A stretch of DNA of 61,635 bases from a virus (lineage: Duplodnaviria > Heunggongvirae > Uroviricota > Caudoviricetes), in the IMG/VR virus record IMGVR_UViG_3300033049_000033, positions 64,001-125,635 of that record; one strand, written 5' to 3'. Positions 11,298 to 27,239 of the stretch are shown piece by piece. The first letter of the stretch is position 1, and the number at the start of each line of letters is the position of its first letter. The position numbers were made by a program, and so were the translations under genes. A model generated the notes under the pieces. The model made no database searches and was not told the DNA's origin. It was given only the letters and a program-made list of their open reading frames with translations.

Positions 11298-11504
11298 ATG
11301 AAAAAAAGTGAACGCATTGTTAATGTGAGATTTTCAGGTCATGGTCATTACAAAGTTACCATAGTCAGATACGGTGTTGAACACACGGCAACCATTGACG
11401 ATATGCCAACAATTGATAACTATAAAGATGGTACAGAGGTTGCAGCTAACAACCTATACGATATGGTCATTAGGAAATGTAACCTCGCCAAGTATTCTTA
11501 TTAA
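11298..11504 (+). CDS. hypothetical protein
   Basis: 68-aa ORF. Confidence 0.6.
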   Translation: MKKSERIVNVRFSGHGHYKVTIVRYGVEHTATIDDMPTIDNYKDGTEVAANNLYDMVIRKCNLAKYSY

Positions 11505-12118
11505 CCATACATCTTTAGCACGTTGTTAGAAAAAGTTAATAACGTGTCAACGTTAGCGGAGTTTTTCATTCGATTAGCCAAAAATGAAATAACTTGTATA
11601 TTACCTTTCACGTAACCCTTAGTGGGGTCTATTCTATCTAAAGAAGGTGAAAAATCAGTAGCCTCTGAATTGGAGTACTCTAATGGTACATTCAAAAATG
11701 GACATTCGTTAATCAATATTATGTCCTCACTAAAAATGTTAAACTCAAGTTTACCCTCTTTCGCCCTTTTAGACGCTCCATTATGTAAACGATTCCTAAC
11801 ACTCTTGCCACCATTAGGGATATGATTTTGTAATATTAATATAGTTTCACCATATTCAGAATATAATCTATTAACTACGTTGTCATTAATCATACCAATA
11901 TTCTTTAATACTTTTGGATAATACATTACTAATTCGTATATTTGTTTTTTAGTAGTATTATTAACATCAAATACTACTTCACATAATGTATCGTCTACCG
12001 TAGTGTCACTATCATAACACTCTACAATATATTGTAGAACCGATTCTGGATTGAAGAAATATCTATTATATAATCCACCCCTACGTTTTAATTTTCTTTT
12101 TACTTGTTTTAAGCTCAT
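11501..12118 (-). CDS. HNH-like (beta-beta-alpha) endonuclease, probably freestanding homing type
   Basis: CPFLNVPL...SPSLDRIDPTKGYVKGNIQVISFLANRMK; likely start MSLKQVK at 12118 with the late motif at 12123-12130. Confidence 0.65.
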   Translation of the reverse strand: MSLKQVKRKLKRRGGLYNRYFFNPESVLQYIVECYDSDTTVDDTLCEVVFDVNNTTKKQIYELVMYYPKVLKNIGMINDNVVNRLYSEYGETILILQNHIPNGGKSVRNRLHNGASKRAKEGKLEFNIFSEDIILINECPFLNVPLEYSNSEATDFSPSLDRIDPTKGYVKGNIQVISFLANRMKNSANVDTLLTFSNNVLKMYG

Positions 12119-12139
12119 ATTAATAAATATAATACTAAA

Positions 12140-12325
12140 CCCAAAAAGACCCCCTCCCCCGTTAAAACTTCCTACACCCCCCCCCATAGCCCCCTCCTAT
12201 GTAACCCCTCTTATATACCCCCCGTGTACCTTGTTATAAGGGTGTGTGATGTAGCGCGTAAAATTTCTGACAGATTTTTTTACTATTTTACTAAGGTCGA
12301 TACCCTCAATCAAAAAATTTTTCAG
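12140..12325. other. non-coding boundary with clustered C runs and an AAAAAATTTTT tract
   Basis: At least 7 runs of 4 or more C in ~90 bp in an AT-rich genome; separates the repeat-promoter region from the rest. Confidence 0.6.
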
Positions 12326-12330
12326 AAATA

Positions 12331-12362
12331 TTTGCATATGTCCCACAAAATGCGTATCTTTG
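12331..12362 (+). promoter_or_regulatory. Bacteroidota-type promoter
   Basis: TTTG-N20-TATCTTTG; same architecture at 16211, 20462, 23117, 23995, 25788, 27616, 33726 (+) and near 33685 and 51790 (-). Confidence 0.8.
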
Positions 12363-12384
12363 TAAAAAAATATGACAATGATTA

Positions 12385-12618
12385 ATGTGTCGAAGTTTAT
12401 TGGTGATGATTGATTTAGACAAATATGTGGGTGACACTAAGAGGAGGTTAATTATGACCAAGAGGGGTCATATATCTATAAATATTCACGATGACAATGA
12501 TTTGGATTTAGGTATTTTGATTGAGGGTGTCATACGGGATAAACTCAATGATGGTACCACACTCTATAAATATACACAAACCGTATTAGACTTAACGATA
12601 TTAACGGGTTGGAAATGA
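12385..12618 (+). CDS. hypothetical protein
   Basis: ORF after the promoter; start uncertain. Confidence 0.5.
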   Translation: MCRSLLVMIDLDKYVGDTKRRLIMTKRGHISINIHDDNDLDLGILIEGVIRDKLNDGTTLYKYTQTVLDLTILTGWK

Positions 12619-12863
12619 AATCACTGCATCAATATATTAATAACCCCAATTTCCATTGCTTATGTGTTGGTGAAGAGTGTCTTATAATCCCTACCAATCG
12701 GACAACTGATGGGTTTGATAGTATTATATTCAATATGGCTTTACGTTCGTTAACCCTTAGTCGTAATGTCAGGGAGGCTCAGAGAATAGTGGCTAACTCG
12801 GTACTTCAAGTGCAAAATTTGTCTAAGGTTATACAACCTACATCTATAATTTGGAATGATTAA
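12609..12863 (+). CDS. hypothetical protein
   Basis: 84-aa ORF, coupled to neighbours. Confidence 0.5.
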   Translation: MEMKSLHQYINNPNFHCLCVGEECLIIPTNRTTDGFDSIIFNMALRSLTLSRNVREAQRIVANSVLQVQNLSKVIQPTSIIWND

Positions 12864-13069
12864 TTTAGAAGAATATAAAAATAGGGATGACCTTTTCTTA
12901 TTAGCAATGGGTAATGTTGTGCTTAAGGTTAAGTCCCAGAATGTTAACTCACAATTCTCATTGATAGTCAGAGGGGTAATGTTGAGGAATAATAATTTAA
13001 TCAAAACGTAATATTCCACATTAAAGACAGCGTACCATTAACCGCCATACATATAACAGTATTACCGAA

Positions 13070-13552
13070 GTGATAGAAGATAATTTATATATGATTTTAG
13101 AGGATGGCACCAAGATACTTCTTGAGGTGGGCAGATGCTACGGTGCGTTCGATTATGGTTCATTCGATATGTATATTGATAACAGACAAGAGCATGACGG
13201 TATCTGGTCTGCTAAGTGGGGGGAGAGGCGTGAAGGAAGCCCCGACACTGAATTATACCTACACCTTGAGGGTTTTGTTAATGCCCAATTAAAGCTTAAA
13301 GAGTTGAGTGTGAATGAATATGTTAGAAATCTAAAAATATGGGCTAACGTATCGATTGAGAATCCTGTGGTATTGCCACAGAGTCTTGAATTTGCATATC
13401 TGAGTATTAATGCAGTTTATTCTAATTTGGTGGACTTTGCCCATACTGACACTGATATTGTCATATGCAGTGATGACTCAATAATATTAAACGATTGTCA
13501 TTTATTATCTTATAACAAGATATCCGAGGAGTTTACACATACCGAATGGTAA
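13070..13552 (+). CDS. paralog family member 1 (FNIP/LRR-like C-terminus)
   Basis: YMILEDGTKI...NPVVLPQSLEFAYL...SNLVDF. Confidence 0.75.
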   Translation: MIEDNLYMILEDGTKILLEVGRCYGAFDYGSFDMYIDNRQEHDGIWSAKWGERREGSPDTELYLHLEGFVNAQLKLKELSVNEYVRNLKIWANVSIENPVVLPQSLEFAYLSINAVYSNLVDFAHTDTDIVICSDDSIILNDCHLLSYNKISEEFTHTEW

Positions 13553-13556
13553 TAAT

Positions 13557-13772
13557 ATGGAAAATAGAGAAATAGATACATTAATATCCTACTACGTCAG
13601 ACTCTGGTCTGACGGCATGTATGAGGTTATAAAAACAATCAAAAAGATAGACATGTCAAGTTGGTCACATACTGAATTATCCAACATTAATGAGGTGGTT
13701 TTTACGGGTCGTATATCGGATTGTGAGAGCTTCATAAATTTAGATAGTCAAAGGTTAATTAAGGATGACTGA
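13557..13772 (+). CDS. hypothetical protein (non-paralog inside the array)
   Basis: 71 aa, lacks the family motifs. Confidence 0.6.
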   Translation: MENREIDTLISYYVRLWSDGMYEVIKTIKKIDMSSWSHTELSNINEVVFTGRISDCESFINLDSQRLIKDD

Positions 13773-14202
13773 TAGGCAAGGATATATGATATTAAAGGAT
13801 GGTCGAAAGGTAACACTATCGCTTGGTTGCGCTTACGGCTCATATGATTACAAACAGGATGACGAAGACGGGAAACGTAAAAATTATCCCCCCACATATA
13901 TGAATACTGGCCATTCCCATGGAGGTGTGGAAGGTTTGAATTGGGGTATGACTTATCCTAATGACGAATATGGTGACGCTTTAATTATTGAGAATACGGA
14001 CATTGAGCTTATTAGTTTGGTATTGCCAAAAGGTATTACTTATCTATCGCTCGACTATAAAATAACGGTTATGGAACCAGTAATCTTACCATCTGGAATG
14101 GAGGGGTTATATGCTGGGTCTAATATAACCTTCACCAACATAGGGGACTTTAGTGATACTGAGGTTGATTTTGTTTTAGGTTATGATAAATATGATGACT
14201 GA
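13765..14202 (+). CDS. paralog family member 2
   Basis: GYMILKDGRKV...LVLPKGITYL...EPVILPSGM...TNIGDF. Confidence 0.8.
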   Translation: MTDRQGYMILKDGRKVTLSLGCAYGSYDYKQDDEDGKRKNYPPTYMNTGHSHGGVEGLNWGMTYPNDEYGDALIIENTDIELISLVLPKGITYLSLDYKITVMEPVILPSGMEGLYAGSNITFTNIGDFSDTEVDFVLGYDKYDD

Positions 14203-14599
14203 CAGTAAAATGATTTTAATGGACGGTACTGAAGTATCGTTAAAACAATTTAGAATATACGACAATAAAGTGTTTGGTACTGCGTATGAAGACTGTAGAT
14301 GTGAATTAGATGGTAGAATATGGTCTGCGAAATGGGCTGATGCCACTTATGATGGTGTTACTTTTAAGCGTGGAGCATTTGCTCTTAATCTACTAATGGT
14401 AGAACCCATCAAAGAATTAATCATAGCTGACGACATAACACATGTCTTTGCCGCTAAAGCAATAGTAAAGCAACCAATTGTAGTACCAACTGGAATTATG
14501 GTTATTATAATAACCAATCATTGTACGATTGTAAACACTGAATTATTCATAGGTGTAGATTCAGCAATTTTGCAGATTATATCAGATGAACGACTCTAA
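14183..14599 (+). CDS. paralog family member 3
   Basis: MILMDGTEV...IWSAKW (shared with member 1)...QPIVVPTGI...NTELF. Confidence 0.75.
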   Translation: MINMMTDSKMILMDGTEVSLKQFRIYDNKVFGTAYEDCRCELDGRIWSAKWADATYDGVTFKRGAFALNLLMVEPIKELIIADDITHVFAAKAIVKQPIVVPTGIMVIIITNHCTIVNTELFIGVDSAILQIISDERL

Positions 14600-14601
14600 T
14601 C

Positions 14602-15000
14602 ATGAAATCACGATTAGAAGACGGTACAGAATTTGAAGTTAGGCTCAATTATAATTATAGTACGAGAGATTATAATGTGGGTATAACGTATTGTCGTTCT
14701 GGTGAATTAGGGACAACCCTGCGATGGGGCGAGTTAGACTTGACCAAGCCTTGGGTTAGTGATGGTTTGGATAGTTGTGTATTTGAAAATATACGTGGTA
14801 TCCACAGTGGGTATGTGTTGTCATTCGACAGGCTTATATTACCTAAAGACATTCAACAGATATTCATTACTCGTTTTATAACGATAAAGGAGCCTATAAT
14901 GCTACCTAAAACTATAATAGACGTTAAGATACCAAAATATATATCTATATCCAATTTAGAGGAGTTTACGTATATGGAAAATAACATAAGACTAATATGA
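14602..15000 (+). CDS. paralog family member 4
   Basis: LEDGTEF...LILPKDI...EPIMLPKTI...SNLEEF. Confidence 0.8.
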   Translation: MKSRLEDGTEFEVRLNYNYSTRDYNVGITYCRSGELGTTLRWGELDLTKPWVSDGLDSCVFENIRGIHSGYVLSFDRLILPKDIQQIFITRFITIKEPIMLPKTIIDVKIPKYISISNLEEFTYMENNIRLI

Positions 15001-15398
15001 TAGACGGATACGCAATAGGGTTGGATGGAACGAGATTTTCTATAAAGACTGGACTAATTTATTGTAGTGTTTTCGCACATAGAGACGAATGGGTATCAAC
15101 AATCGAACACTCTGGGTATGACAATGTTAGTATAGTTATACCCCATCTAGGTAATATGGCGTTCATTAATACTATATACCTTGAGGGTTCGGAATTAAGC
15201 CCTATAAGATTAAAATCGTTAGCATTACCATCAAGTGTTAGGGAAGTAGTAATGAACCAACACGTATACATTGAAGATGGTTTTACGTTACCATATGATA
15301 TTAGTTATATTGAACTTGATGGGCGATTATCTATTAACAATTTAACAGATTTTATAGATGATGATAGTGTCAATATAGCTTTATTCACAAATACATGA
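14997..15398 (+). CDS. paralog family member 5
   Basis: GYAIGLDGTRF...LALPSSV...FTLPYDI...NNLTDF. Confidence 0.8.
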   Translation: MIDGYAIGLDGTRFSIKTGLIYCSVFAHRDEWVSTIEHSGYDNVSIVIPHLGNMAFINTIYLEGSELSPIRLKSLALPSSVREVVMNQHVYIEDGFTLPYDISYIELDGRLSINNLTDFIDDDSVNIALFTNT

Positions 15399-15805
15399 AA
15401 AAAGGATACATAATACTGAATACTGGAGAACGTATCAAGATTGAATTAGGTTACACTTATGGTACGTATGACGTATTGGTGGATGCCACAACCACACCAA
15501 TATACGTAGGTGAAGAACTTGTTAGAATTAGGTTAGAGTCTAATGGGTTCGGTCTGGCTGCGACATATTACGAAACAACTATTCATTTTGAATCTAGCAG
15601 TCATCCTTTAATAATTAAAAAGATGGTATTACCAAAGGGTATAACAGAATTACATATTAGTCACGACATTTCAGTTTTGGAGCCTGTATGGATACCTAAC
15701 ACCATTAAAGAGTTAACGATTATGTCGACTGTGACTATAAGTAATTTAGATGAGTTTATTAATAGAGATGATACAATAATAGAATTAACAGTTCCATGGC
15801 TATAA
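15395..15805 (+). CDS. paralog family member 6
   Basis: GYIILNTGERI...MVLPKGI...EPVWIPNTI...SNLDEF. Confidence 0.8.
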   Translation: MKKGYIILNTGERIKIELGYTYGTYDVLVDATTTPIYVGEELVRIRLESNGFGLAATYYETTIHFESSSHPLIIKKMVLPKGITELHISHDISVLEPVWIPNTIKELTIMSTVTISNLDEFINRDDTIIELTVPWL

Positions 15806-16209
15806 AGACAGGATACGCAATATTAGATTCAGGAAAACGTATACCCATTAAAGTTGGCCATGCGTATAGTAAAATATCGGCTAAGTTGTTAGGGTTACAG
15901 TTGGAACCTCATAAGCATGATTTGGATTATATTCACGTTGTAGATTATAACAATATTAATATGGTCTTCGAGAAAGACCACACCAAAGTATTATCCATAA
16001 CGGGAGGGGTAGACAATCCATTTATCATCGACAAACTAGAGATACCGATTGAGGTAGAGAGCTTGGAAATACATAACTGGGTCTGGATTAGTACTCCTAT
16101 TACTTTACCAGATAGTATTAAAATAGCTAGAATGCCAAGTCACGTTTCACTAACCAATATAGATGATTTCACTAACAAGAGTGATGTCCGTATCGTTTTT
16201 AGACGATAG
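15796..16209 (+). CDS. paralog family member 7
   Basis: GYAILDSGKRI...LEIPIEV...TPITLPDSI...TNIDDF. Confidence 0.8.
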   Translation: MAIKTGYAILDSGKRIPIKVGHAYSKISAKLLGLQLEPHKHDLDYIHVVDYNNINMVFEKDHTKVLSITGGVDNPFIIDKLEIPIEVESLEIHNWVWISTPITLPDSIKIARMPSHVSLTNIDDFTNKSDVRIVFRR

Positions 16210-16272
16210 ATTTGCATTTGTCAAAAACATTTTGTATCTTTGTAACTCAATAGATTAATTAAATAACAAAAT

Positions 16273-16671
16273 ATGTATAAAGTAACAGTAAAAGGTAAGG
16301 CCACAGTTGTCGTATCAGATTACGAAGGTAATGATGTGGTATTTGATAACTTATCAGAGCTAAACGGCATTGATTGTCAGGATTGTTTTTGTGACTACAT
16401 TGACGATGATTATGACGGTGCAGTTTCTGGTGGATATATGGACTTCCGATATGAGGATGGCGAGTTAATAACTTACACCGTGTACGATTCCAAAAGAGAA
16501 TTAACTGACGATGAGTTGGCAAAATTGGAAGGGTATACTTCTGGTCAATGGTCAGATGGTATCGGAGAAGGATTCGAGCAGGTTGCATGTGCTGAGGTAG
16601 ATGAAGGTGAAGTATTTATTTCTCCTTGGTTTGGTGGTCAAACAAGAACAATCACTCAAGAAAAAGTATAA
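16273..16671 (+). CDS. acidic hypothetical protein
   Basis: 132 aa with a GQWSDGIGEGFEQ motif; promoter at 16211. Confidence 0.75.
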   Translation: MYKVTVKGKATVVVSDYEGNDVVFDNLSELNGIDCQDCFCDYIDDDYDGAVSGGYMDFRYEDGELITYTVYDSKRELTDDELAKLEGYTSGQWSDGIGEGFEQVACAEVDEGEVFISPWFGGQTRTITQEKV

Positions 16672-16724
16672 TGGGCTTTCTATCGCCATTCCACTTGGCA
16701 TAGCTAAGATAACCAAAAAATTAG

Positions 16725-17096
16725 ATGATAATGAGTAAAGAAATAGATAATTTTATTGGTACACTGTACCATCCCAAGTATTTAATCAGTATGAAGGACT
16801 TCACAATAAACTGCTATATGCACCACAACGATGGTGAGAGCGATGAGGATATTGCGAAGCATTCTGGTAGTTGCTATGGGTATGCTATATTCTTGAATCA
16901 AAGAACACATATAGACTTATTTTTGGGTAATACTACTAGGTTTAAGAATTTTGGTAAGTATACTGAATTAGAAAGCGGATATAGTCGCATTGTATTCAAT
17001 AATGGTACAGAGCTTATTTTCGACCCAGAGGGTTATGCTGGCGATGGAAGTGTTGAGCAATTGATTGGTCTTTATGATGAACTCGAAATGATTTAA
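16725..17096 (+). CDS. hypothetical protein
   Basis: 123-aa ORF. Confidence 0.65.
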   Translation: MIMSKEIDNFIGTLYHPKYLISMKDFTINCYMHHNDGESDEDIAKHSGSCYGYAIFLNQRTHIDLFLGNTTRFKNFGKYTELESGYSRIVFNNGTELIFDPEGYAGDGSVEQLIGLYDELEMI

Positions 17097-17140
17097 CAAA
17101 TAAATTTGGTAATGTCAAATATTTTACCTACCTTTGTAGT

Positions 17141-17524
17141 ATGGGATTAGCGATTAAACAATATAGACGCGCATATAGCACGATGCAAAGGATGCGCGAG
17201 TTCGTTCTCACTATAGAAGGTAATGACTACACTTTAGATGAGGTATATAATGGCGCACCAACTCTATTTAACGAGTTCATTTTTCATTCCGATTGTGAAG
17301 GAGGTTATATTTCATTTCGAACATTTGGAATAACTTCGTTAATATCTAAAACACTACAATGCGGTGACTTGGATAAGTTAAAGCTTGAAATGGAAGTATT
17401 GCGATTGGCATTAATTGGGTGGGACATAGATAGTACATCATCATCGTTAGACCCATTTAGGGACGCTATAAAGGAGTTTATATGTGATGTGGAGGAATCA
17501 GAAAACGTATTAGAATTTCACTAA
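17141..17524 (+). CDS. hypothetical protein
   Basis: Behind an outlier copy of the early promoter repeat (17105). Confidence 0.7.
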   Translation: MGLAIKQYRRAYSTMQRMREFVLTIEGNDYTLDEVYNGAPTLFNEFIFHSDCEGGYISFRTFGITSLISKTLQCGDLDKLKLEMEVLRLALIGWDIDSTSSSLDPFRDAIKEFICDVEESENVLEFH

Positions 17525-18120
17525 TGATAAAAGAAGACAAGGTAACGCTGTATAATACATTCATGAAAGAACTCACCGAAGGGCGAGTTACAGCTAAAAG
17601 CAAATGGAAAGAGGGTAGCTATGGTGACATCTATAGTCATCTATTTGAGATGTTACCCACTGAGGATTTTAAACAAACATTAACATATACCTACGACATA
17701 AGTCGAGGTAATGATAAGTATTACGGAAAAGATGGTAAGGAGGGCTGGTTCTTCAGTTTCCACAAGAGTATTCGTCAATGTGATTTCTATGATAATATAT
17801 TCGCCACATGTGAGCAGAAGCTATTATCAGATGATGAAGCGTCTGAGTATAAATTTCTTCGTACTAAAGTATTTGATAAGACTATCGTGAAGAAGAGTGA
17901 GGTAGATGGAGAATTATGGACTGAGGAGTACAATAGATATAAGGAATTACTAGGTAAGGTACAGAGAGAAAAACAAGACTATGAGATTTCTGGTCGTATG
18001 GATTCTATTTTATGGAATATGATTCACATAGATGAAGGATTCTTGCATGGTATTATGGAAATGACCTTTGCCAAGTGGGACGTGATTAAGCAGAACGTTA
18101 AATTAAAACAGAAAGCATGA
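17524..18120 (+). CDS. hypothetical protein
   Basis: 198 aa, TAATG coupling. Confidence 0.75.
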   Translation: MIKEDKVTLYNTFMKELTEGRVTAKSKWKEGSYGDIYSHLFEMLPTEDFKQTLTYTYDISRGNDKYYGKDGKEGWFFSFHKSIRQCDFYDNIFATCEQKLLSDDEASEYKFLRTKVFDKTIVKKSEVDGELWTEEYNRYKELLGKVQREKQDYEISGRMDSILWNMIHIDEGFLHGIMEMTFAKWDVIKQNVKLKQKA

Positions 18121-18335
18121 TAAACGTACTAATAGGACTTTGTTTGATATGTGCCATGGCACATTTCTTAGGTTACCAAATTAAGTTTGGTCAAGGAGGA
18201 CTTGCTTGGGAGAATAGTAATAAGACCATACGATATATTATGTATACGTATGTTACTATGATTGCATTTGGTTATGTTGGGATGTTAGTATTATTGTTCT
18301 TAGGGTTAGATTGTATTATTTCTCAAATACTCTAA
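18117..18335 (+). CDS. two-TM membrane protein
   Basis: Two hydrophobic helices. Confidence 0.65.
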   Translation: MINVLIGLCLICAMAHFLGYQIKFGQGGLAWENSNKTIRYIMYTYVTMIAFGYVGMLVLLFLGLDCIISQIL

Positions 18336-18336
18336 A

Positions 18337-18603
18337 TTGAAAATGCGAAATAAATATCCAGAGCGTAAAGAGTCTGTAATTGTTATAATCTTTAATATCA
18401 TTAAGGGATTATTTTTGGTACCATTAAAGTGGACATTAATTTTATTTGGGGTGATATTGGCTGGTAAGGCCATATATAGTTTTGGAACGTGGGACTCCAC
18501 AATAATGGTCGAAGCATTATCCAATCTAAGTTGGTTGAGGTGGACGTTCATCGCCTTTTTTGGATTTAATATTTACCTATACATAAGCGAATTAATACCA
18601 TGA
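18337..18603 (+). CDS. membrane protein
   Basis: Hydrophobic segments. Confidence 0.65.
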   Translation: MKMRNKYPERKESVIVIIFNIIKGLFLVPLKWTLILFGVILAGKAIYSFGTWDSTIMVEALSNLSWLRWTFIAFFGFNIYLYISELIP

Positions 18604-19019
18604 AAGTAAGAGTAGATGCAATAACCACATACAAAGACGGTGGAACGAAACAAATTGTACTTAGTGACGGACTCACGTACTATGTAGATAACCGTCTACT
18701 TTCTACAACTAAAGGTGAGGTGTACGCTTCGTACCCTAAAGGTGATTCAAATCTATCCCCAGTGACGGATAGGGAGAAAGAGATATTGATTGCGTGTTTG
18801 GAAGAGTACGGTAAAGAGAGTGCAATGTATGATGTTGGTGCTACGATTTATACTATCAGCGCCACCATGGTCAAACCAGAATCTTGGAGTTATACCGTTG
18901 TCAATGTACATACTGAGAATACAGTTGTAGGTTATACAATTATAACTGATAACGGAGACGAGCAGTATCTAACGGTACAAGAATTCACAGATTTTAAAAT
19001 CAGAAGAACAGAAGTATGA
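18600..19019 (+). CDS. hypothetical protein
   Basis: 139 aa, ATGA coupling. Confidence 0.7.
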   Translation: MKVRVDAITTYKDGGTKQIVLSDGLTYYVDNRLLSTTKGEVYASYPKGDSNLSPVTDREKEILIACLEEYGKESAMYDVGATIYTISATMVKPESWSYTVVNVHTENTVVGYTIITDNGDEQYLTVQEFTDFKIRRTEV

Positions 19020-19534
19020 TAAAGTATAATTTATTTGCAAATAATAGCAAAACAAAATACGCTTGTATTCGCAGGGCAAATAAAGCTGGACAATACATCA
19101 CATTATTTGATTATTTTCCAAGTGATTACGCATCAGAATTTAGACATTCATTTGATGTTATCAGACTCACTGAATTGTCCATAGATAGTGGTGGTATCTT
19201 AACATTAGAGGGCAAACGACAAACTAAAGTATCATGTTTTAAGTACGGTAGTGATGGTTATACCAAACTGGAATATTCCATTGCCGAAGTCGCGGAAAAA
19301 CAAGGAATTAGTGTTGAGGAATTAATGAACTTAAATAATACCACAGAAAGGACAATATGGGACAAGAGGTGGTATTGGTTTAACAAGGATACTGGTAGAA
19401 AGGAGACGATATTTGCATACTGGACAGTATTTAATGGTAAGGAAACTCCTATTACCGAAGTATTCTCAAACTTCACTTTAAGTGATGAGTATGAGATTTT
19501 ATCTTGGGGTGAAGAGGTTATCCTTAAGGGGTAA
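19016..19534 (+). CDS. hypothetical protein
   Basis: 172 aa, ATGA coupling. Confidence 0.7.
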   Translation: MIKYNLFANNSKTKYACIRRANKAGQYITLFDYFPSDYASEFRHSFDVIRLTELSIDSGGILTLEGKRQTKVSCFKYGSDGYTKLEYSIAEVAEKQGISVEELMNLNNTTERTIWDKRWYWFNKDTGRKETIFAYWTVFNGKETPITEVFSNFTLSDEYEILSWGEEVILKG

Positions 19535-19997
19535 TACTATCTGTACCAATAACGTTCTGAGATGAGAATGTTGCTGGAATAACATCAAAAACAATGGTTG
19601 AATTTGGCGATGGTTGAGCCATCACCGAGGCAGGTCTTTGGTAATTACCATTAACTCTATCACCCAAAGTGTTTGTACGTTCCATTACCAGCATAATACT
19701 CAAGTCTTGGTCGATATTCTTATCAGTATTAGGTTTTACCTCTTCCCTTTTAAGTTCCTTAAGAGCAGTTAGGATTTCTTTCTTGTCTTTAGCGATTAGC
19801 TCTATGAGAGCTTTGTCAGCCTCCTTACGCCCGTCTTCAGCTTTCCAGTATAGACCATAGGCAAACATTAGAATAGATATAGTCCCACCTATTAATGCAC
19901 CAATAGCATACTTCATTAGTTTAGTACTGATGGTCATACTACCTTTATCAGCGACAAGGTTTTCAGCTACGTTTAGGGGTTGATTTTGTTCTGACAT
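19524..19997 (-). CDS. membrane protein with coiled coil
   Basis: One TM (AIGALIGGTISILMFAYGLYW) then a helical segment; co-transcribed with 20000-20440. Confidence 0.65.
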   Translation of the reverse strand: MSEQNQPLNVAENLVADKGSMTISTKLMKYAIGALIGGTISILMFAYGLYWKAEDGRKEADKALIELIAKDKKEILTALKELKREEVKPNTDKNIDQDLSIMLVMERTNTLGDRVNGNYQRPASVMAQPSPNSTIVFDVIPATFSSQNVIGTDSITP

Positions 19998-19999
19998 AA

Positions 20000-20440
20000 T
20001 TAATATTTTATTGAACGAGTGTAAGGTGTGGCGTTATCATAACTAACGGAGAACTGATTATATGGACTATAAGACCAAAACCAAGCCACTGGAGAGCCTC
20101 TTTCATGGTCACATGATATGTAGGGTACATTTATGGTTACAAGGTTGTAAACGGCTCCATATTGATTAAGTTCACTCATTGTGGCATTAAAATTACGAAT
20201 GTAAGTTATAGCTTTATCATTATTATACCCATCTTCTTTGGTTCTATAGAATGAATTTGAGTGAGTGAAGACATGATAATAATAGATGTTACCTTCTTGT
20301 ACTCTTGTTATTTGCCAGAAGAAGGAACCCCACTCACCTTCGTTTTCAATTTGCCAATTGGTATGTTCAACTGGTTGTGATTGACCAATACAAATAAAGC
20401 TGGAAAATAATAGTCCTAATATTAATAATATTCGTTTCAT
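20000..20440 (-). CDS. exported protein
   Basis: Signal peptide MKRILLILGLLFSSFICIG; late motif at 20455-20462. Confidence 0.7.
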   Translation of the reverse strand: MKRILLILGLLFSSFICIGQSQPVEHTNWQIENEGEWGSFFWQITRVQEGNIYYYHVFTHSNSFYRTKEDGYNNDKAITYIRNFNATMSELNQYGAVYNLVTINVPYISCDHERGSPVAWFWSYSPYNQFSVSYDNATPYTRSIKY

Positions 20441-20497
20441 AATAATCTTTTTCTATAAATATTTGCATAAGTCAAAAAAATTCACTATCTTTGTACA

Positions 20498-20713
20498 ATG
20501 GATATAGGAAGAGGTATAGAAGGGCTATTTAAGAATTTGATAGCGATGGCTTTAATTGGTATTATTAGTACATTAGGTTTAGGTATTTACACAATTGTAG
20601 ATTTCTTTTCTGATGATGTGTATACTACAAAGGAACTAATAATACCAAATATTGAAATAGTCACCACTGATGGCGTATCAGATACGACATACACATATAC
20701 ATTTAAAGATTAA
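20498..20713 (+). CDS. membrane-anchored small protein
   Basis: N-terminal TM; promoter at 20462. Confidence 0.65.
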   Translation: MDIGRGIEGLFKNLIAMALIGIISTLGLGIYTIVDFFSDDVYTTKELIIPNIEIVTTDGVSDTTYTYTFKD

Positions 20714-20715
20714 TT

Positions 20716-21099
20716 ATGCCGACAGCATTAACTAAAGACCTACTTAGAGAATCTACTGAGAAGTATGATGACAGAAATATATATGTCACTCTAACCGCAG
20801 ACCAGAAAATAAAGATGAAGCTAAAGGGTATGAAATCTGGAGAGGTTTCTACCAGTATTAGAAGCTTGTATCTTGAATTGTGTGGTTGTGAGGACGAAGA
20901 AGGTACTGCACCTGTTAAAGAGGTTAAGTCCGTTAGTTATACTCGAAAAGAGTCTGGTAAATACGTTCAACCAGACCCAAGGATAGCTAAGGTCATACTA
21001 CAAGATTTGAGAAGTCAAAATGCCATTTCTGGATTAGACATAGAAACATTGGCCAAGTTTGACCAAATTATCGTTAATTTATTACAATCATACAAATGA
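20716..21099 (+). CDS. hypothetical protein
   Basis: 127 aa. Confidence 0.7.
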   Translation: MPTALTKDLLRESTEKYDDRNIYVTLTADQKIKMKLKGMKSGEVSTSIRSLYLELCGCEDEEGTAPVKEVKSVSYTRKESGKYVQPDPRIAKVILQDLRSQNAISGLDIETLAKFDQIIVNLLQSYK

Positions 21100-21389
21100 A
21101 ATACCGACCATTACCAGAAAATGTAACGATTAAGAACTCTACAATTGGAGGGTTAGGATTGTTTGCAACCGAAGACATCAGAGAGGGAGTCGAAATAGGG
21201 CTAACCCATATCCCAGAGGAACATGCTCCAAATGGATTTATTAGAACACCTTTAGGTGGATTCTATAATCATTCTGAAGACCCTAACTGTATTAGTACCA
21301 TATTTGCTGGGTTTAGGTTTTTGAGCACTATTAAAGACATAAAAGCTGGGGATGAACTTACTAGTTTTTACACTTTGTACGAGATTTAG
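21096..21389 (+). CDS. SET-domain protein (putative lysine methyltransferase)
   Basis: GLGLFA, NHSEDPNC and GDELTSFY are the three SET signature motifs. Confidence 0.85.
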   Translation: MKYRPLPENVTIKNSTIGGLGLFATEDIREGVEIGLTHIPEEHAPNGFIRTPLGGFYNHSEDPNCISTIFAGFRFLSTIKDIKAGDELTSFYTLYEI

Positions 21390-21524
21390 CGATTTATTCA
21401 AGTCACAAACACATTCTAATTCACCACAAAAGTCACACCTCCACGGTTGGTCAAACTGACAGACACACTTTCTTTCGGTACATATTTTGCACCAATCATA
21501 TTCATCTGGTTCAGAGCTATTCAT
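21252..21524 (-). CDS. Cys-rich small protein
   Basis: Two CxxCx4CxC units; its 3' part overlaps the SET gene antisense. Confidence 0.45.
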   Translation of the reverse strand: MNSSEPDEYDWCKICTERKCVCQFDQPWRCDFCGELECVCDLNKSLNLVQSVKTSKFIPSFYVFNSAQKPKPSKYGTNTVRVFRMIIEST

Positions 21525-21545
21525 ATAACGTTAGGTTAAACTAAA

Positions 21546-21568
21546 AAGAGACCCGATTAGGGGTCTCT
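21546..21568. terminator. hairpin terminator candidate
   Basis: AAGAGACCC-GATTA-GGGTCTCTT; on the minus strand followed by T run. Confidence 0.6.
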
Positions 21569-21632
21569 TAGTTGTGCCATACCCTAAAGGGAATGGTCTA
21601 ATTCCGCATCAAATTTTATTGATGGTGTCATA

Positions 21633-22124
21633 TTAATTTAAAGCTGTATTTCCACTCATTATCATTGTGTTATCCATTGAAGGGTTATACGTCATTGGCA
21701 CTTCGGTACCACTCATTGTTGCTGGCTCACAAATACACCCATTTTCACATCCATCATTGATACAATTAGCACACATACAAGGATTCGAATTACAGGCTCC
21801 ACAGCTAAGTAAACCACTATCTGTAGTACATACACAAGGGTTCATTTTACAGGTAATACATTGGTCGCTATAATCTTCGTAGACTGGTCTAGGTGTTACG
21901 GTAAATAATTTTCCTAGGTCGATACTCTGTAGGTTAAGGTTAATTTCAAACCCACCACCCATTTGCTCTTGAATTATTTCATATGCTTTGATTTCTGCCA
22001 TCAATGCCAACGCATTGCCAAACACATCTTTTTGGTCTTCGGGCATTGATTCAAAGAAGCCACCAGCCCCCAATAAAATCTTACCATATTCATCTAATTG
22101 TTGTTTCTTTTGTTCAATATCCAT
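21633..22124 (-). CDS. protein with Cys-rich CxxCx4CxC repeats
   Basis: CITCKMNPCVC, CGACNSNPCMC, CINDGCENGCIC. Confidence 0.7.
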   Translation of the reverse strand: MDIEQKKQQLDEYGKILLGAGGFFESMPEDQKDVFGNALALMAEIKAYEIIQEQMGGGFEINLNLQSIDLGKLFTVTPRPVYEDYSDQCITCKMNPCVCTTDSGLLSCGACNSNPCMCANCINDGCENGCICEPATMSGTEVPMTYNPSMDNTMIMSGNTALN

Positions 22125-22188
22125 TTTTGCTTTTAATTTGGTACTTTATAATGGGAGACTCCCGTAGATAAATAGAAACTGCGACACT

Positions 22189-22647
22189 CTAAATCTCTCT
22201 TACGATGAAGTTTTCTCTATATTTTTCTCGTGGTAGTAAAAAACCTCTGGTATTACTTCCCATGTCGCCACTAAATTGGGTTATAGGGATATTATCTTCC
22301 TCTTCTTTGAGTAAAATTCTGAGGTCTTCAACACTGATGTACCATGCCTCCTTTAGGAACTTATAATACATAACAAACCACTTAGCTTCAGTAACATATA
22401 TCCCAGATGCGTAGCCCCTACATTCGAATTCAATAAACATATTTCCAGTATCATATGTTGGCTTGCAATAGACATCAGTCTTAACTTCGTATTTAATTTG
22501 TTCTCCAGCTTTTTCCATCAGTAGGTCGTATCGATAATCCTTATTGGTATCAATGAGCTTGGCACCCATTTGTATTAGGTCATCTTTGATGACAATTTCT
22601 CCTTGTTCCCCCACAAGTATATCTTGTTTAAAATCGTAATTAGCCAT
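22189..22647 (-). CDS. PD-(D/E)xK nuclease-fold protein
   Basis: GEQGE...YDLL...YEVKTD. Confidence 0.65.
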   Translation of the reverse strand: MANYDFKQDILVGEQGEIVIKDDLIQMGAKLIDTNKDYRYDLLMEKAGEQIKYEVKTDVYCKPTYDTGNMFIEFECRGYASGIYVTEAKWFVMYYKFLKEAWYISVEDLRILLKEEEDNIPITQFSGDMGSNTRGFLLPREKYRENFIVREI

Positions 22648-22696
22648 GTTTTAAGTATAGGCAAAATTATTTGGATTGTCAAGCATATTTATTAAT

Positions 22697-23116
22697 ATGA
22701 AAAGGATTAAACTTACTGAAGGTCAAGTAGCTATGTTACGGCTAAATGAAGGTAGAATAGATATTGAAAAGACCATTGAGCCAGAGGTTAATGAGATTAA
22801 CGTAACGTTAATGGATATCGCTAAAAGATTGAAGACTATGACAGCTCCGAGAGCGATTAGTAACCCATCTATATTGGCAGACATGGTTAATACCTTAGAA
22901 CCTTTGGATGATAAAATCTATAATTTATCCAATAAGGTTGACCAATACAATGAAGACCCACAATACAGTAATGTTGATAAGTACATAGTTAACACTCTTA
23001 ACGGTTTGGAATTGAAGCGTAGAGAGTTAGCTAGAATTGCAGGCGCATTAGCTAAATTAGGTGCCGACTCCAATCTGAATGGGAAGCCAGAGGTTTTTGA
23101 CAAACTGTTCAAATAA
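22697..23116 (+). CDS. late hypothetical protein (possible head-packaged)
   Basis: ATATTTAT motif at 22685-22692; LTEG and LNEG motifs. Confidence 0.65.
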   Translation: MKRIKLTEGQVAMLRLNEGRIDIEKTIEPEVNEINVTLMDIAKRLKTMTAPRAISNPSILADMVNTLEPLDDKIYNLSNKVDQYNEDPQYSNVDKYIVNTLNGLELKRRELARIAGALAKLGADSNLNGKPEVFDKLFK

Positions 23117-23153
23117 TTTGCATTTATAAATAATATTTTGTATCTTTGTAGTT

Positions 23154-23720
23154 ATGAGATACCTTTTATTATTATTCGTAGGGTTCACTTCTTGCAATAT
23201 GCTATATGAAGATGAAGACCCCCAACCACCAATCACCCAAATAGAAGTACCTGAATGGGATACTGAAGAATTTATCCGTGGCCGATGGCTACTAATAAAT
23301 GGTCAGTTTTATGTTAATAATCACGTATCCGATAATACGGAAATTTATAACCACTTTGAGGGTGGTGATACTAGTAGCCTGAATATTGACGGAACAGCTT
23401 ACGATTTCGAAGAAATAATAAGGAATACTACTACTTGGACGTTTTATCCAGAAAATAGACCCATAGACCAGTTTTGGTTAAATAACGATTCAATAATGCC
23501 GTTATGGTTGACCAGCTTTGGCGATACAGTGTTTAATGTAAATGAATATCCTGTGCCGATTAACGTACAGCAAATCGGTGGGAGTACCAGACCAATCATT
23601 ATAATCAGTCATGAATATGATATGATGCGAATAATAGTACAAGAAGCCGAGGTTAACCACCAAGGATGGAATATAAAATATTGGTCAGAATTGACGTTTA
23701 GGAAAGTGGCGTCTTGGTAG
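23154..23720 (+). CDS. lipoprotein (lipocalin-like beta fold possible)
   Basis: VGFTS-C lipobox followed by acidic YEDED; GRWLLING; promoter at 23117. Confidence 0.7.
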   Translation: MRYLLLLFVGFTSCNMLYEDEDPQPPITQIEVPEWDTEEFIRGRWLLINGQFYVNNHVSDNTEIYNHFEGGDTSSLNIDGTAYDFEEIIRNTTTWTFYPENRPIDQFWLNNDSIMPLWLTSFGDTVFNVNEYPVPINVQQIGGSTRPIIIISHEYDMMRIIVQEAEVNHQGWNIKYWSELTFRKVASW

Positions 23721-23984
23721 ATTCTTCTTTGGTCTATTGTTTGTGAGATAGTCATTCATAGCTAATTCTATGACTGCATCAGTAACAGGAAACAATTCCT
23801 TTAGCGATTCAAATATAAGTGCTCGTAATTGACTACGTGTATGACTTCTCACGTATCTAATAGTACTAGCGTCAAAGATTATTCCTCTCTGAAATTTATT
23901 CGTATTAGTGTCTTTAATTCTGGCTATTTTATACCCAGACCTCATGAACTCGCTTATTAGTCCAGCTTTTTTATCGTCTTCCAT
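23685..23984 (-). CDS. hypothetical protein
   Basis: 99 aa, late motif at 23989-23996. Confidence 0.6.
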   Translation of the reverse strand: MEDDKKAGLISEFMRSGYKIARIKDTNTNKFQRGIIFDASTIRYVRSHTRSQLRALIFESLKELFPVTDAVIELAMNDYLTNNRPKKNLPRRHFPKRQF

Positions 23985-24030
23985 AATTATAAATATTGAT
24001 TTTGTGGAATAAAAATCGTATCTTTGTACT

Positions 24031-24396
24031 ATGCCTAACGAGAAACTTCATATGGACTTCATGGTTATTATGAGTGAGATGAGTGTAATGTACTACGTTC
24101 ACTATATTACTAGAAAACTATATAGTTTTGAGAGTCATTGTTTAAAAGTAACCAATGCGATGGAAGACCCGATTAAATACAAATCGGAGGTTAATAGTAC
24201 CAGTTATCAAAACTTGATATTATTCCTCATGATGGAATTGGAGACTCAATATGGACTTGTTGGGGGTAGAGCTACAAAAATTATAGTAGATTTCTATACT
24301 AACAGATTCTGGGTAGGTATTTATAATGCACAGATTAAGGTTAATAAAAGCCTTTTTCCTGATGGATATTACAAAAAGTTAAAAAAAGGAATATAA
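24031..24396 (+). CDS. hypothetical protein
   Basis: 121 aa, promoter upstream. Confidence 0.6.
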   Translation: MPNEKLHMDFMVIMSEMSVMYYVHYITRKLYSFESHCLKVTNAMEDPIKYKSEVNSTSYQNLILFLMMELETQYGLVGGRATKIIVDFYTNRFWVGIYNAQIKVNKSLFPDGYYKKLKKGI

Positions 24397-24698
24397 TGGA
24401 AGTTACAGATGCAAATATTGACGCCACAATTAAGGAAGGTGTTGTGTTATTAGATTTTTGGGCAGAGTGGTGCGGACCTTGTCGAACACTAACCCCTATA
24501 ATTGATGGGTTAGTAACGGATAACCCAGACATTAAGATTGGTAAAGTTAACGTTGATAGCAATGGTGTGGCAGCACGTAAGTACGGAGTAAGAGGGATAC
24601 CTATGTTGGTTTTTCTTAAAGATGGTGAAGTGGTTGATACTTCCGTAGGAGTTTTATCGAAAGCTCAAATTCAAGCTAAATTAGACGTACTTAAGTAA
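24396..24698 (+). CDS. trxA: thioredoxin
   Basis: DFWAEWCGPC active site; GIPMLVFLKDG cis-Pro motif. Confidence 0.95.
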   Translation: MEVTDANIDATIKEGVVLLDFWAEWCGPCRTLTPIIDGLVTDNPDIKIGKVNVDSNGVAARKYGVRGIPMLVFLKDGEVVDTSVGVLSKAQIQAKLDVLK

Positions 24699-24719
24699 GG
24701 TTGCCCCATATTTATTGAT

Positions 24720-25064
24720 ATGGGAAAAAGAATTATCATACGTGAGGGACAACTGAAAACTCTGGTGGGGCACATCAAAGAAAACAGTGACCACACAACT
24801 ATGGTCAAAAATATTCAAGATGATTTAGATAAAAATTACTCTCCAGAAGTAATGACACAAAGACAAGGAGGAGAATATTTTGAGAAGCCATCGTTTGTTA
24901 TTAAGGCTGACGGTTCCATGACCACAGGTAAAAATCTATTGCGATATTTATCTATGAAGTATGGAGATATGGTAGGAGACATATTTATCAAGCAAGTTAT
25001 ACGAGATTGGGCAGACGATTCAATCAGAGATGGTTATCTTAGCAAAAACGTTTCAATGAGCTAA
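24720..25064 (+). CDS. late hypothetical protein
   Basis: ATATTTAT at 24708-24715; IREG and IKEN motifs. Confidence 0.7.
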   Translation: MGKRIIIREGQLKTLVGHIKENSDHTTMVKNIQDDLDKNYSPEVMTQRQGGEYFEKPSFVIKADGSMTTGKNLLRYLSMKYGDMVGDIFIKQVIRDWADDSIRDGYLSKNVSMS

Positions 25065-25065
25065 A

Positions 25066-25380
25066 ATGAAAACGAAGATACGACATATGTTGCGAGAACA
25101 ATATGGAGAGTTCGACACATATCTTGAGCTTGTCTACGAAAAGCAATTATTAGAAAACGTATCAACAAAACATCGCAAAAAGGTTAGAGCATGGCTCACC
25201 TACAATCAAGTTATTTTAGAATTAAAGCATAACATCAAAGATTCACTCAAATTACGAGAATTACAGTACCGACTTACTGATAATGAGAATCCTAATAAGG
25301 TATGTTTGGAAGTTTTGAGCGAGTTGAAAGAATCGCATCCAGAAATTGAGAGGCTTTATTATAAAATAATGAACTTTTAA
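25066..25380 (+). CDS. hypothetical protein (paralog of next gene)
   Basis: YRLTDNENPNKV. Confidence 0.7.
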   Translation: MKTKIRHMLREQYGEFDTYLELVYEKQLLENVSTKHRKKVRAWLTYNQVILELKHNIKDSLKLRELQYRLTDNENPNKVCLEVLSELKESHPEIERLYYKIMNF

Positions 25381-25445
25381 CTGACGTTCCAGTGTGTAGA
25401 ATGATATTTATAATTGAATAACATTTTATTAAAAAAACGTGAGAT

Positions 25446-25787
25446 ATGAGCTTAAACGACTTCATAATTAACAACGGCTACACTGAAAAAAGCTACTTAA
25501 ATTACGCTTACAGGAGCCTACTCATGAACACCGTCACAACATTAGACGACAAAACCTTCGAAAGATGGGAAACATATCACATGATTATTGATGAACTTGA
25601 TAAGCAAGGATACGGAAAGGCGTTCAAAGAGATAAAGTATAGACTAACCGATGAGTTAGCTGATGAAAATCCTAACGATGTATTTATTGATGTTTTAAGT
25701 AGATTTGAATTAACTCCACTATTAGTCTTCTTACAACGAAGAATCGATATGTATATTGACGATGAGTTAATGAGTCGATTCCTGTAA
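25446..25787 (+). CDS. hypothetical protein (paralog of previous gene)
   Basis: YRLTDELADENPNDV. Confidence 0.7.
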   Translation: MSLNDFIINNGYTEKSYLNYAYRSLLMNTVTTLDDKTFERWETYHMIIDELDKQGYGKAFKEIKYRLTDELADENPNDVFIDVLSRFELTPLLVFLQRRIDMYIDDELMSRFL

Positions 25788-25823
25788 GTTGTAAAAGTCA
25801 AATAAATTCGATATCTTTGTATT

Positions 25824-27239
25824 ATGGCTAAGATTGATAAGCGTATTTCGTTTCTCGCTCAGAAGTTTAACGTCTTTGATATCGAAGATGTTGAGGATAA
25901 TGAGGAAGAGTTTACAAAAGCTGGATATAGCGATATTGAGGTGGTGGCAGACCCCCTTACTGAAGATACCATTGCGTTGTTATCGGAGAAGTACCGTAAT
26001 GAGAAGTCGACCAAGAAACTACGTAAGATAGCTGTTGAAATAACCATCTTTGGTAGAATGATTTCTGCCGACCCCACGAACAATAAGCAGTTCGTCCAAT
26101 GGATGTTAACTGTATTCACTAACTTCCTTAAAGACCGAGACATTAGTGAGGCCATCAGGTTTGCCTGTGAAGACCTCCCTAGGGCTAAAGAGTATTTAGA
26201 GGTTTTCGAAGCCAATAAACGTAAGGCCAGCTTTAAGAGGTTCTGTGATAAGAACTTCAGTTTAAGACATATCGATGACTGTACTAATATTGACCAATAT
26301 CACAGCCTTTCAGAGCTATTTGATGCAGTTGACCCATTCATTGAGAAGGATGTATCTGGCCTGAAAAGAGACCTTATGCGTTTCGTTAATAATGGTGATG
26401 CAGAGATTACGTTCAAAGACCGACATTTTATCGTTTACATTCCACTAACCAGAGACGCTTCAACCGTATTTAATAACTTTTCAAATTGGTGTACAAACTC
26501 TCCAGGAAATGGAATGTATAAGAGTTATACCGACAATCTAAGACCAGACAAGAGCAAATCTAAGTTATACGTGATTATTCCGACTGACTATTTTACAGGA
26601 GAAACTGAGGAAATATATCAGCTTCATTTTGAAAGTAACCAATTCATGGATAGAAAAGACCGTAGAGCTAACATTGTAGAACTATTTGACATTAGTGAGG
26701 AGCTATCTGAATACTTCGAAGATGAATTATTTGACATATTGGGTCAGTGTAATTCTATTATCGATAGGAACTATAAGAATTGGTTATTCCAGTTCAATCT
26801 TGGGTATGTTATGTTCTCTTTTATGGACGATAAAATGCTTAATCTCAGGTTCAAGAATGATATGCTTGGTAAAATACCAGATACTATCAGTAGATTCACA
26901 AACTTAAAACACTTAGTTGTGACCAAATGTAGGGTTAAATCAATTGATGAGAATATTGGTGACCTAACCAACCTAACTGTTTTAGGTTTAAATGACAATA
27001 AACTGACCAGATTACCTATAAATCTATGTAAGTTGAAGAGTCTCAAGTTTTTAAGCTTAACTGATAATCCCATTAAGGATATAGATAAGAGCATATCAAA
27101 TTTAGACATATCAAATGGAGGGTCGTTAGAATGGGTGGTGGTATCAAAAAAATCTGTCGCTGACAAATTATCTCGCTATTTACCTAATGCAGAGATAGAC
27201 GTAATCAGCAGAACAAAGCATAGCTACGAGAACCTATAA
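25824..27239 (+). CDS. leucine-rich-repeat fusion protein
   Basis: C-terminal LxxLxLxxNxLxxLP repeats (LTVLGLNDNKLTRLP, LKFLSLTDNPIKDI); N-terminal domain with ADPT.NK..QW and NWCT motifs. Confidence 0.8.
   Translation: MAKIDKRISFLAQKFNVFDIEDVEDNEEEFTKAGYSDIEVVADPLTEDTIALLSEKYRNEKSTKKLRKIAVEITIFGRMISADPTNNKQFVQWMLTVFTNFLKDRDISEAIRFACEDLPRAKEYLEVFEANKRKASFKRFCDKNFSLRHIDDCTNIDQYHSLSELFDAVDPFIEKDVSGLKRDLMRFVNNGDAEITFKDRHFIVYIPLTRDASTVFNNFSNWCTNSPGNGMYKSYTDNLRPDKSKSKLYVIIPTDYFTGETEEIYQLHFESNQFMDRKDRRANIVELFDISEELSEYFEDELFDILGQCNSIIDRNYKNWLFQFNLGYVMFSFMDDKMLNLRFKNDMLGKIPDTISRFTNLKHLVVTKCRVKSIDENIGDLTNLTVLGLNDNKLTRLPINLCKLKSLKFLSLTDNPIKDIDKSISNLDISNGGSLEWVVVSKKSVADKLSRYLPNAEIDVISRTKHSYENL

Follow-up and report, generated by a model that had tools for sequence, protein, structure and literature searches.

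Immune receptors as well as effectors of bacteria and giant viruses classically use leucine-rich repeat (LRR) domains as their evolvable scaffold for protein binding, and both LRR scaffolds and viral expansions of repeat proteins are well known. Described systems that bear comparison with the locus studied here are the FNIP proteins of giant viruses and Dictyostelium (PF05725; PMC9525666), the LPX-type LRRs of the IpaH/SspH effectors (PDB 4nkg, 7ya7, 5kh1) and the BspA-type LRR_5 proteins (PF13306; PDB 4h09, 4gt6, 4fd0). FNIP proteins comprise 12-25 rungs, in which the FGxxFN motif forms a double phenylalanine spine, and occur in multi-copy expansions (~70 genes in CroV); among them, Crov539 (PDB 7zal) forms a cap-swapped dimer and Crov588 (PDB 6nyr) a closed ring of ~30 repeats (PMC9525666). 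Here, we study an array of seven small genes in a viral DNA stretch of 61,635 nucleotides (nt), called the window in the following. It covers bases 64001-125635 of the 125,635-bp IMG/VR virus record IMGVR_UViG_3300033049_000033; positions marked as genome refer to the whole record. We are moderately confident that the array provides seven diverged, small and soluble mini-LRR binders, encoded in one operon, that serve host takeover or counter-defence.

An initial annotation of the window had listed seven genes of 132-160 amino acids (aa), and all seven open reading frames (ORFs) are found intact on the plus strand at 13070-16209 (members m1 to m7; Table 1). Pairwise BLASTP comparisons yield E-values down to 2e-14, most pairs being below 1e-3 (nominal database size 1e6). 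A profile built from the alignment of the seven window members (A1) recovers each of them at 1e-40 to 1e-54 without matching any unrelated protein of the genome. The homology is thus far beyond chance, i.e., the seven genes are mutual paralogs as had been proposed.

The conservation along the proteins is uneven. The N-terminal 24 residues show a mean pairwise identity of 36%, the middle (36-47 aa long) of 15% and the C-terminal LRR module, with a fixed length of 47-48 residues and no indels, of 24%. This agrees with the earlier description of conserved ends around a variable middle. Also the restriction of the IWSAKW motif to the middle of m1 and to m3 is confirmed. The proposed N-terminal motif GYxILxDGxxI marks a conserved region but is degenerate in m3 and m4. 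At the DNA level, no similarity between the copies is left beyond 20-nt motif echoes. All seven frames are intact despite this divergence past DNA-level recognition, and core hydrophobic positions are kept. The proteins are acidic to neutral (isoelectric points of 4.3-6.6), and neither a signal peptide, in line with the annotation, nor a transmembrane segment is predicted in any of the seven, which fits soluble proteins. The start of m1 is uncertain (GTG 13070 vs ATG 13091), and the public gene call corresponds to the 153-aa form; its ~25-aa tail is predicted to be disordered.

Two other ideas about how the array is built found no support. A diversity-generating retroelement is not supported, as no reverse transcriptase was found in the fragment (~35% of the genome) and no template/variable DNA repeats occur in 12000-17000. 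An 18-bp TGTACA palindrome that is present elsewhere in the genome was considered as array boundary, but it does not flank the array.

The C-terminal part had been annotated as resembling FNIP-type LRRs. The LRR assignment with an FNIP-like flavour holds, given one strong and several weak lines among profiles, profile-profile alignment and structure models, while membership in FNIP does not. Across 7 to 15 sequences, two clear 21-residue units of the form LPxxIxxLxIxxxIxxxxPxx align without any insertion or deletion; they are preceded by a third, degenerate rung. Pfam and PHROG searches of the seven members give nothing above threshold. The best direct Pfam match is that of m6 to FNIP (E 0.0014), which reaches 19.1 bits and thereby remains below the gathering threshold of 21 bits; the other six members show no FNIP match. 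Furthermore, the FGxxFN motif is not found in the seven-member alignment, where Ile, Val or Leu replace Phe and no Gly is conserved, and Asn is invariant only in the last repeat (IxNLxDF). Concerning the BspA-type LRR_5 family, which has its gathering threshold at 27.7 bits, no window member matches it, and the extended family alignment (A2, 18 sequences) contains a single member with a hit, at E 0.089; the profile of all 18 gives weak matches to BspA-type proteins (E 0.0012-0.017).

Links to the LRR superfamily become visible at the profile level. When the A1 profile was compared with 1.84 billion representatives, 26 proteins were matched at E <=0.001. These include the seven members, three further members from upstream in the genome (among them P0018 and P0026), six full-length small relatives from other marine contigs and three canonical small LRR proteins. 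They also include eight large proteins that are hit over many repeated stretches. Seven of these eight are LRR_5, FNIP or LRR_4 proteins with respective domains above the Pfam cut-offs, and the A1 matches fall inside their LRR regions (best match P0008, E 1e-19). The exception, P0014 (1576 aa), is not of these families. Its residues 160-1036 form six near-identical 168-aa repeats with the pattern GxVxLxxGxxVxFxVGxxY, each weakly matching the N-terminal half of the family profile (8-11 bits each), a possible sign of common ancestry with the N-terminal hairpin domain, and it also has Ig-like Big_3_5 domains. When A1 was aligned with canonical mini-LRR relatives by hhalign, the last 60 columns matched with a probability of 96% (E 3.8e-9), and one of these relatives, P0020, passes Pfam's FNIP threshold (25.2 bits vs 21). 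That is, profile similarity to the LRR superfamily is found both via the LRR_5/FNIP/LRR_4 proteins and via the hhalign link. Neighbours according to a protein language model are FNIP clusters as well (best score 0.91).

Structure predictions point, more weakly, in the same direction. The AlphaFold2 (AF2) model of m6 (mf058b6a3a25c), which is the best-predicted member, has a predicted local distance difference test (pLDDT) score of 81.8, with values above 90 for residues 70-130 and low values for residues 28-46. For m1 (mfa7e4edfd149), the pLDDT is 75 and the predicted template modelling score 0.76, while residues 137-160 are below 50. Both models are confident in the C-terminal half and share an all-beta topology, i.e., N-terminal beta-hairpins, a poorly defined or hairpin-like middle and then short strands at regular spacing, with a single helical turn at NLxDF before the final strand. 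An exhaustive structural comparison (VIA-align) ranks the FNIP-type LRR of CroV588 first for m6 (Z 4.9, 26% identity over 81 residues), ahead of the LRRs of SspH1, IpaH and internalin.

Several observations weigh against the LRR assignment. The single A1 stretches within the multi-repeat proteins score 7-13 bits only, and as the E-values (down to 1e-19) sum over many such weak stretches, they make the similarity look stronger than it is. The top three structural matches of m1 are cyclase-associated-protein beta-helices (Z 4.3-4.6), and LRRs make up most of the rows below them. All structural Z values are at most 4.9, i.e., weak matches, and a Foldseek search with the models against PDB, AFDB clusters and BFVD gives no match at E <=0.001. 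Structure alone would not carry the LRR claim, because Z stays below 5 and Foldseek is negative. In PDB sequences, the A1 profile finds SlrP at E 4.2 only. Nevertheless, the pattern of the A1 matches is consistent despite the inflated E-values. Taken together, the C-terminal half is an LRR module of the FNIP/LPX/BspA neighbourhood, predicted to form a short solenoid. Judged from the primary structure, it is not FNIP proper, since no member reaches the cut-off, FGxxFN is absent and only two repeats are clear; "LRR, FNIP-like" is thus the right label and "FNIP" the wrong one.

With FNIP proteins, the family shares repeats of ~21-22 residues, (L/I)P at the repeat junction and the multi-copy expansion in a viral genome. 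It differs in its two to three rungs, in Ile/Val at the Phe positions, in its N-terminal hairpin and non-repeat variable middle, in the lack of a fused F-box or kinase and in its carrier, which is a bacteriophage and not a nucleocytoplasmic large DNA virus. The LPX-type LRRs of IpaH/SspH have similar LP repeats of 20-21 residues, are among the top structural rows for both models and act as substrate-recognition modules inside the target cell, which is the mode proposed here. In contrast to the window family, they have 8-10 repeats fused to an E3 ligase and are type III secreted, and the sequence match is not significant (best E 4.2 for SlrP, as given above). BspA-type proteins occur in Bacteroidota, the likely host phylum of the window phage, and in Firmicutes. 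They are large, carry many repeats of 23-25 residues and are secreted or surface-located, while the window proteins have no signal peptide. Finally, the layout of conserved caps around a variable centre resembles the LRRNT / variable LRRs / LRRCT order of other LRR binders.

The family extends beyond the window. Using the A1 profile and jackhmmer, we found 10-11 further members upstream of it in the same 125-kb record, matched at 1e-13 to 1e-5. BLAST ties one of them (genome 33125-33535) to m5 and m7. Thus, the initially reported number of seven is right for the array but an undercount for the fragment, which holds 17-18 members. The array is the second one of the family in the fragment, roughly 6% of which is taken up by this largest non-endonuclease paralog group. 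Aside from it, the record holds a separate six-member paralog group of minus-strand ORFs.

Related arrays were also found outside of the record. Freshwater contigs with 22.9% GC carry 13 canonical mini-LRR genes (L025:1951-11432, nine of them in one coupled overlapping run) or 7-8 canonical members (L026:2-9266), and A1 matches the freshwater members at 1e-6 to 1e-15. Tandem mini-LRR arrays thus recur in uncultured, presumably phage-like elements unrelated to the window. The canonical relatives (P0020, P0024, P0025; ORFs of L017 and L025) share both ends with the window proteins and carry regular 22-residue repeats in between. Their N-terminal hairpin reads IGKNINGxEVEF or NGWYITKDG and their C-terminal end NNPIxEITLPKTIKYAxLPLNCxVxNLDEFKN...I.F. 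The upstream array and the freshwater contigs (L017, L025, L026) are thus like the window array in C-terminal LRR and cap, N-terminal hairpin, size and coupled tandem layout. They are unlike it in the regular 22-residue repeats of their middle (YNNQLTELxLPxGV) and in the Cys/His tail of some members. The window subfamily, in turn, has kept the caps and the last repeats, while a non-repetitive, copy-specific middle has taken the place of the regular repeats. We therefore regard the window array as a distinct sub-type of the mini-LRR family with a variable non-repeat centre.

Next to these distant arrays, we compared copy numbers across related phages, a check that had been suggested along with the initial annotation. 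Syntenic relatives carry 2 to 7 copies (7 in the window) and differ in the subsets retained. Two contigs (L010, L011), syntenic with window positions 14997-27239, have two members each, both of m5 type and directly preceding the orthologue of the window gene at 17141. In a third (L012), an m1-type copy is accompanied by the 71-aa ORF also found between m1 and m2, by one truncated and one m7-type copy and by the beginning of a further one. Other contigs (L014, L015) hold other subsets. A search anchored on conserved neighbours gave no further IMG/VR relatives and only one already known JGI contig. Orthologues of the family are 28-47% identical, a range in which synonymous sites are saturated, while flanking genes are 43-92% identical, with the flanking identity growing with distance from the array. 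In the tree, m5 pairs with P0009 (support 99/97), m4 with P0011 (82/91) and m6 with P0015 (81/58), although the tree is poorly resolved overall because its branches exceed one change per site. As members pair with orthologues in other phages, the copies are old paralogs that were differentially retained and not recent duplicates. The proposed origin by duplication and divergence is thus supported, with the qualification that the duplications are old (own orthologues, no DNA similarity between copies).

The array also forms a unit of expression. The Bacteroides/Bacteroidota promoter consensus, which is sigma-A-like, reads TTTG-N~20-TAnnTTTG. The pattern TTTG-N18-22-TAnnTTTG occurs 18 times in the window compared to 2.4 expected, a number reached by 0/100 shuffles. 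The motifs span 1051-33718, mostly on the plus strand of the first 30 kb, and punctuate the block of small plus-strand genes every 1-4 kb. Many share a longer consensus, i.e., TTTGGTAGTGTGGA...TATCTTTG or TTTGCAT.TGTC...GTATCTTTG. One such promoter precedes the array and the next one follows it (Table 1); the 48-nt copies near 12331 and at 16205-16252 are 73% identical. No terminator-like site was found on the plus strand between 12385 and 16209. Given the flanking promoters and the lack of such an internal site, the array and the three small ORFs ahead of it form one unit. Within the unit, m2/m3 overlap by 20 nt, m3 and m4 are separated by 2 nt, m4/m5 and m5/m6 are joined by ATGA overlaps, and m6/m7 overlap by 10 nt. 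Translational coupling, as previously suggested, is hence seen in the overlapping or abutting starts and stops of the m2-m7 junctions. No Shine-Dalgarno sequences precede the array genes, as is expected for Bacteroidota-type translation. Type and position of the promoter support, though they do not prove, early expression by the host RNA polymerase in a Bacteroidota host.

Taken together, we propose the following working model. Each protein is soluble, mostly acidic and ~135 aa long. It starts with a beta-hairpin as N-terminal cap (GYxILxDGxxI); then come 36-47 middle residues with hardly any agreement between copies, two clear 21-residue LRRs and a C-terminal cap (IxNLxDF followed by one strand). 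Together, these parts are predicted to form a very short right-handed LRR-type solenoid. The seven genes would be co-transcribed from the host-type promoter at 12331-12362 as a translationally coupled operon, presumably early. Each copy would act as a small intracellular protein-binding module, with the conserved caps and core serving as scaffold and the variable middle plus exposed repeat positions giving each copy its own target. Early binding of such targets, which would belong to the host or to competing elements, would serve host takeover or counter-defence. Protein binding, the differing specificities and the identity of the targets are what we infer here. Fast divergence, copy-number variation and a host-type promoter fit best with a set of small soluble binding modules that are expressed together, which is the profile of host-takeover or counter-defence genes.

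This functional part of the model has its own difficulties. With no more than two clear repeats, the concave face is very small compared with that of classical LRR binders. Pfam and PHROGs gave no match to a known anti-defence family, and early timing is presumed from promoter type and position only. A more far-reaching version is accordingly put forward as a tentative idea that we think has a modest chance of being right: the arrays might be a germline-encoded binder repertoire, analogous to variable lymphocyte receptors or to the FNIP/ankyrin expansions of giant viruses, in which each copy neutralises or redirects a different host protein, for instance a component of one of various defence systems. 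The arrays would then be arms-race hot-spots whose copies are gained, lost and re-specified from one close relative to the next.

It is improbable, but the best surviving of the other explanations, that the array is largely neutral baggage, i.e., an old expansion of a stable small fold that hitch-hikes without specific functions of the individual copies. The narrow distribution of the family among metagenomic phages would speak for it. Only 6 non-self full-length relatives are present among the 1.84 billion representatives. No match was found in 50,697 deposited phage genomes (tblastn of m6 and one upstream member), nor did the profile match any of the five deposited large phages closest to this one, Flavobacterium phage immuto and three uncultured phages of 484-635 kb among them. 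The truncated copy in L012 points the same way. On the other hand, the seven intact frames, the maintained core hydrophobic positions and the indel-free C-terminal module argue against baggage, as do the retention of individual orthologues across phages, the ~6% share of the fragment and the recurrence of similar arrays in unrelated low-GC contigs.

Slightly less credible still is that the copies co-assemble equimolarly into a larger solenoid, ring or scaffold with the caps as subunit interfaces. The tightly coupled operon and the conserved ends, which could be shared interfaces, would fit such an assembly, and the Crov539 cap-swapped dimer and the Crov588 closed ring offer precedents (PMC9525666). 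However, relatives with only 2 copies or with different subsets do not fit an obligate hetero-oligomer of fixed composition, and translational coupling is common in phage operons generally. A homodimer prediction for m6 gave a score of 0.00, but since even the monomer was poorly folded in this alignment-free run, it weighs on neither side.

The remaining explanation concerns the virion and is best discussed along with the origin of the record. CheckV estimates the completeness of the 125-kb record at ~35%, so the full genome probably measures several hundred kb. Among the genes of the record are those for a gp17-type large terminase, a portal, a major head protein, a ClpB-like ATPase and ThyX. 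The terminase is 29-31% identical to that of the nearest deposited phages (Microcystis phage Mel-JY01, Flavobacterium phage immuto and uncultured phages of 484-595 kb), and matching DNA is present in seawater metagenome runs, all from one study. The source is a large, uncultured, distantly T4-like marine phage. The array is set in an accessory region, within a block of small genes of no known family and host-type promoters. LRR domains are often found on bacterial cell surfaces. A role as virion-associated or assembly proteins (decoration, fibre adaptors, host-adhesion accessories) is nonetheless the least probable alternative. It is favoured by weak profile matches to BspA-type LRR surface proteins and by one BFVD row below significance, in which an Aeromonas phage contributes a BspA-family LRR protein. 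These points are outweighed by the distance of about 20-35 kb to the structural module, which begins ~20 kb downstream of the array and has its terminase, portal and major head protein genes at ~40.9-51 kb, by the surrounding small genes with host-type promoters, by a copy number and content that vary between close relatives with conserved neighbouring genes, and by the fact that no matching PHROG structural family was found.

Table 1. Coordinates of the array and of related features (window positions unless marked as genome)
Feature	Position	Strand	Remarks
HNH/EndoVII-type homing endonuclease	11501-12187	minus	phrog_3322, E 3e-24; just upstream of the operon, opposite strand
Bacteroidota-type promoter TTTG-N20-TATCTTTG	12331..12362	+	opens the unit containing the array
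77-aa ORF	12385..12618	+	first gene of the transcription unit; no Pfam or PHROG match
84-aa ORF	12609..12863	+	overlaps preceding gene; no known family; not a detectable family member
51-aa ORF	12856..13011	+	opens with MINLEEYKNRDD, resembling the family's C-terminal cap (ISNLDEFINRDD), not significantly
Member 1 (m1)	13070..13552	+	160 aa from GTG 13070 or 153 aa from ATG 13091
71-aa ORF	13557..13772	+	between m1 and m2; not a family member (jackhmmer recovers itself only)
Member 2 (m2)	13765..14202	+	145 aa
Member 3 (m3)	14183..14599	+	138 aa; IWSAKW in common with m1
Member 4 (m4)	14602..15000	+	132 aa; pairs with P0011 (TARA ocean contig), support 82/91
Member 5 (m5)	14997..15398	+	133 aa; orthologue P0009 (47% identity) in syntenic L010, L011; support 99/97
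Member 6 (m6)	15395..15805	+	136 aa; sub-threshold Pfam FNIP match; best-predicted member
Member 7 (m7)	15796..16209	+	137 aa; BLAST link to upstream-array member at genome 33125-33535
Next Bacteroidota-type promoter	16211..16242	+	marks the end of the array's transcription unit
Promoter motif examples	1051, 2260, 5637, 5886, 6437, 7019, 12331, 16211, 17105, 20462, 23117		
Upstream members	genome: nine at 28.5-35.4 kb, others at 39.4 kb and, weakly, 40.6 kb		

Among the neighbours of the array, the endonuclease at 11501-12187 is the only one with a Pfam or PHROG match. The 71-aa ORF, for which neither database gave a match, shares 48% identity with ORFs of L012 and L014 which likewise adjoin family members; it is a possible functional partner of the array. 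The 51-aa ORF has 77% identity over 35 nt (repeat D4) with 15737-15771, but its hidden Markov model score of ~1 bit lacks significance, so that the resemblance may stem from a decayed remnant or from chance. An eighth, decayed member upstream of the array (12609-13011) was rejected, as the profile score is not significant.

Directly 3' of the array, a 132-aa ORF (16273-16671) contains the only nucleotide-level match of 12000-17000 to deposited phages: positions 16346-16660 are 68% identical over 315 nt to LR745206.1, a 634,780-bp uncultured phage. Further downstream, a conserved 146-aa protein is encoded on the minus strand (20000-20440). It is 66-73% identical in relatives and has no Pfam match, and its N-terminal hydrophobic leader (MKRLLLILSLLF..) suggests a secreted or lipoprotein product.

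In the literature searched, which does not cover all journals, we found no description of mini-LRR operons or LRR repertoires in bacteriophages. In giant viruses, repeat-protein families expand with genome size (PMC5753266), and the mini-LRR arrays extend this rule to phages: in a 125-kb fragment of a large phage, ~6% of the sequence is devoted to coupled operons with 17-18 miniature LRR proteins. Should each copy turn out to bind a specific target, the family would represent a new class of phage host-manipulation or counter-defence factors and could also supply natural binding scaffolds of very small size (~135 aa).

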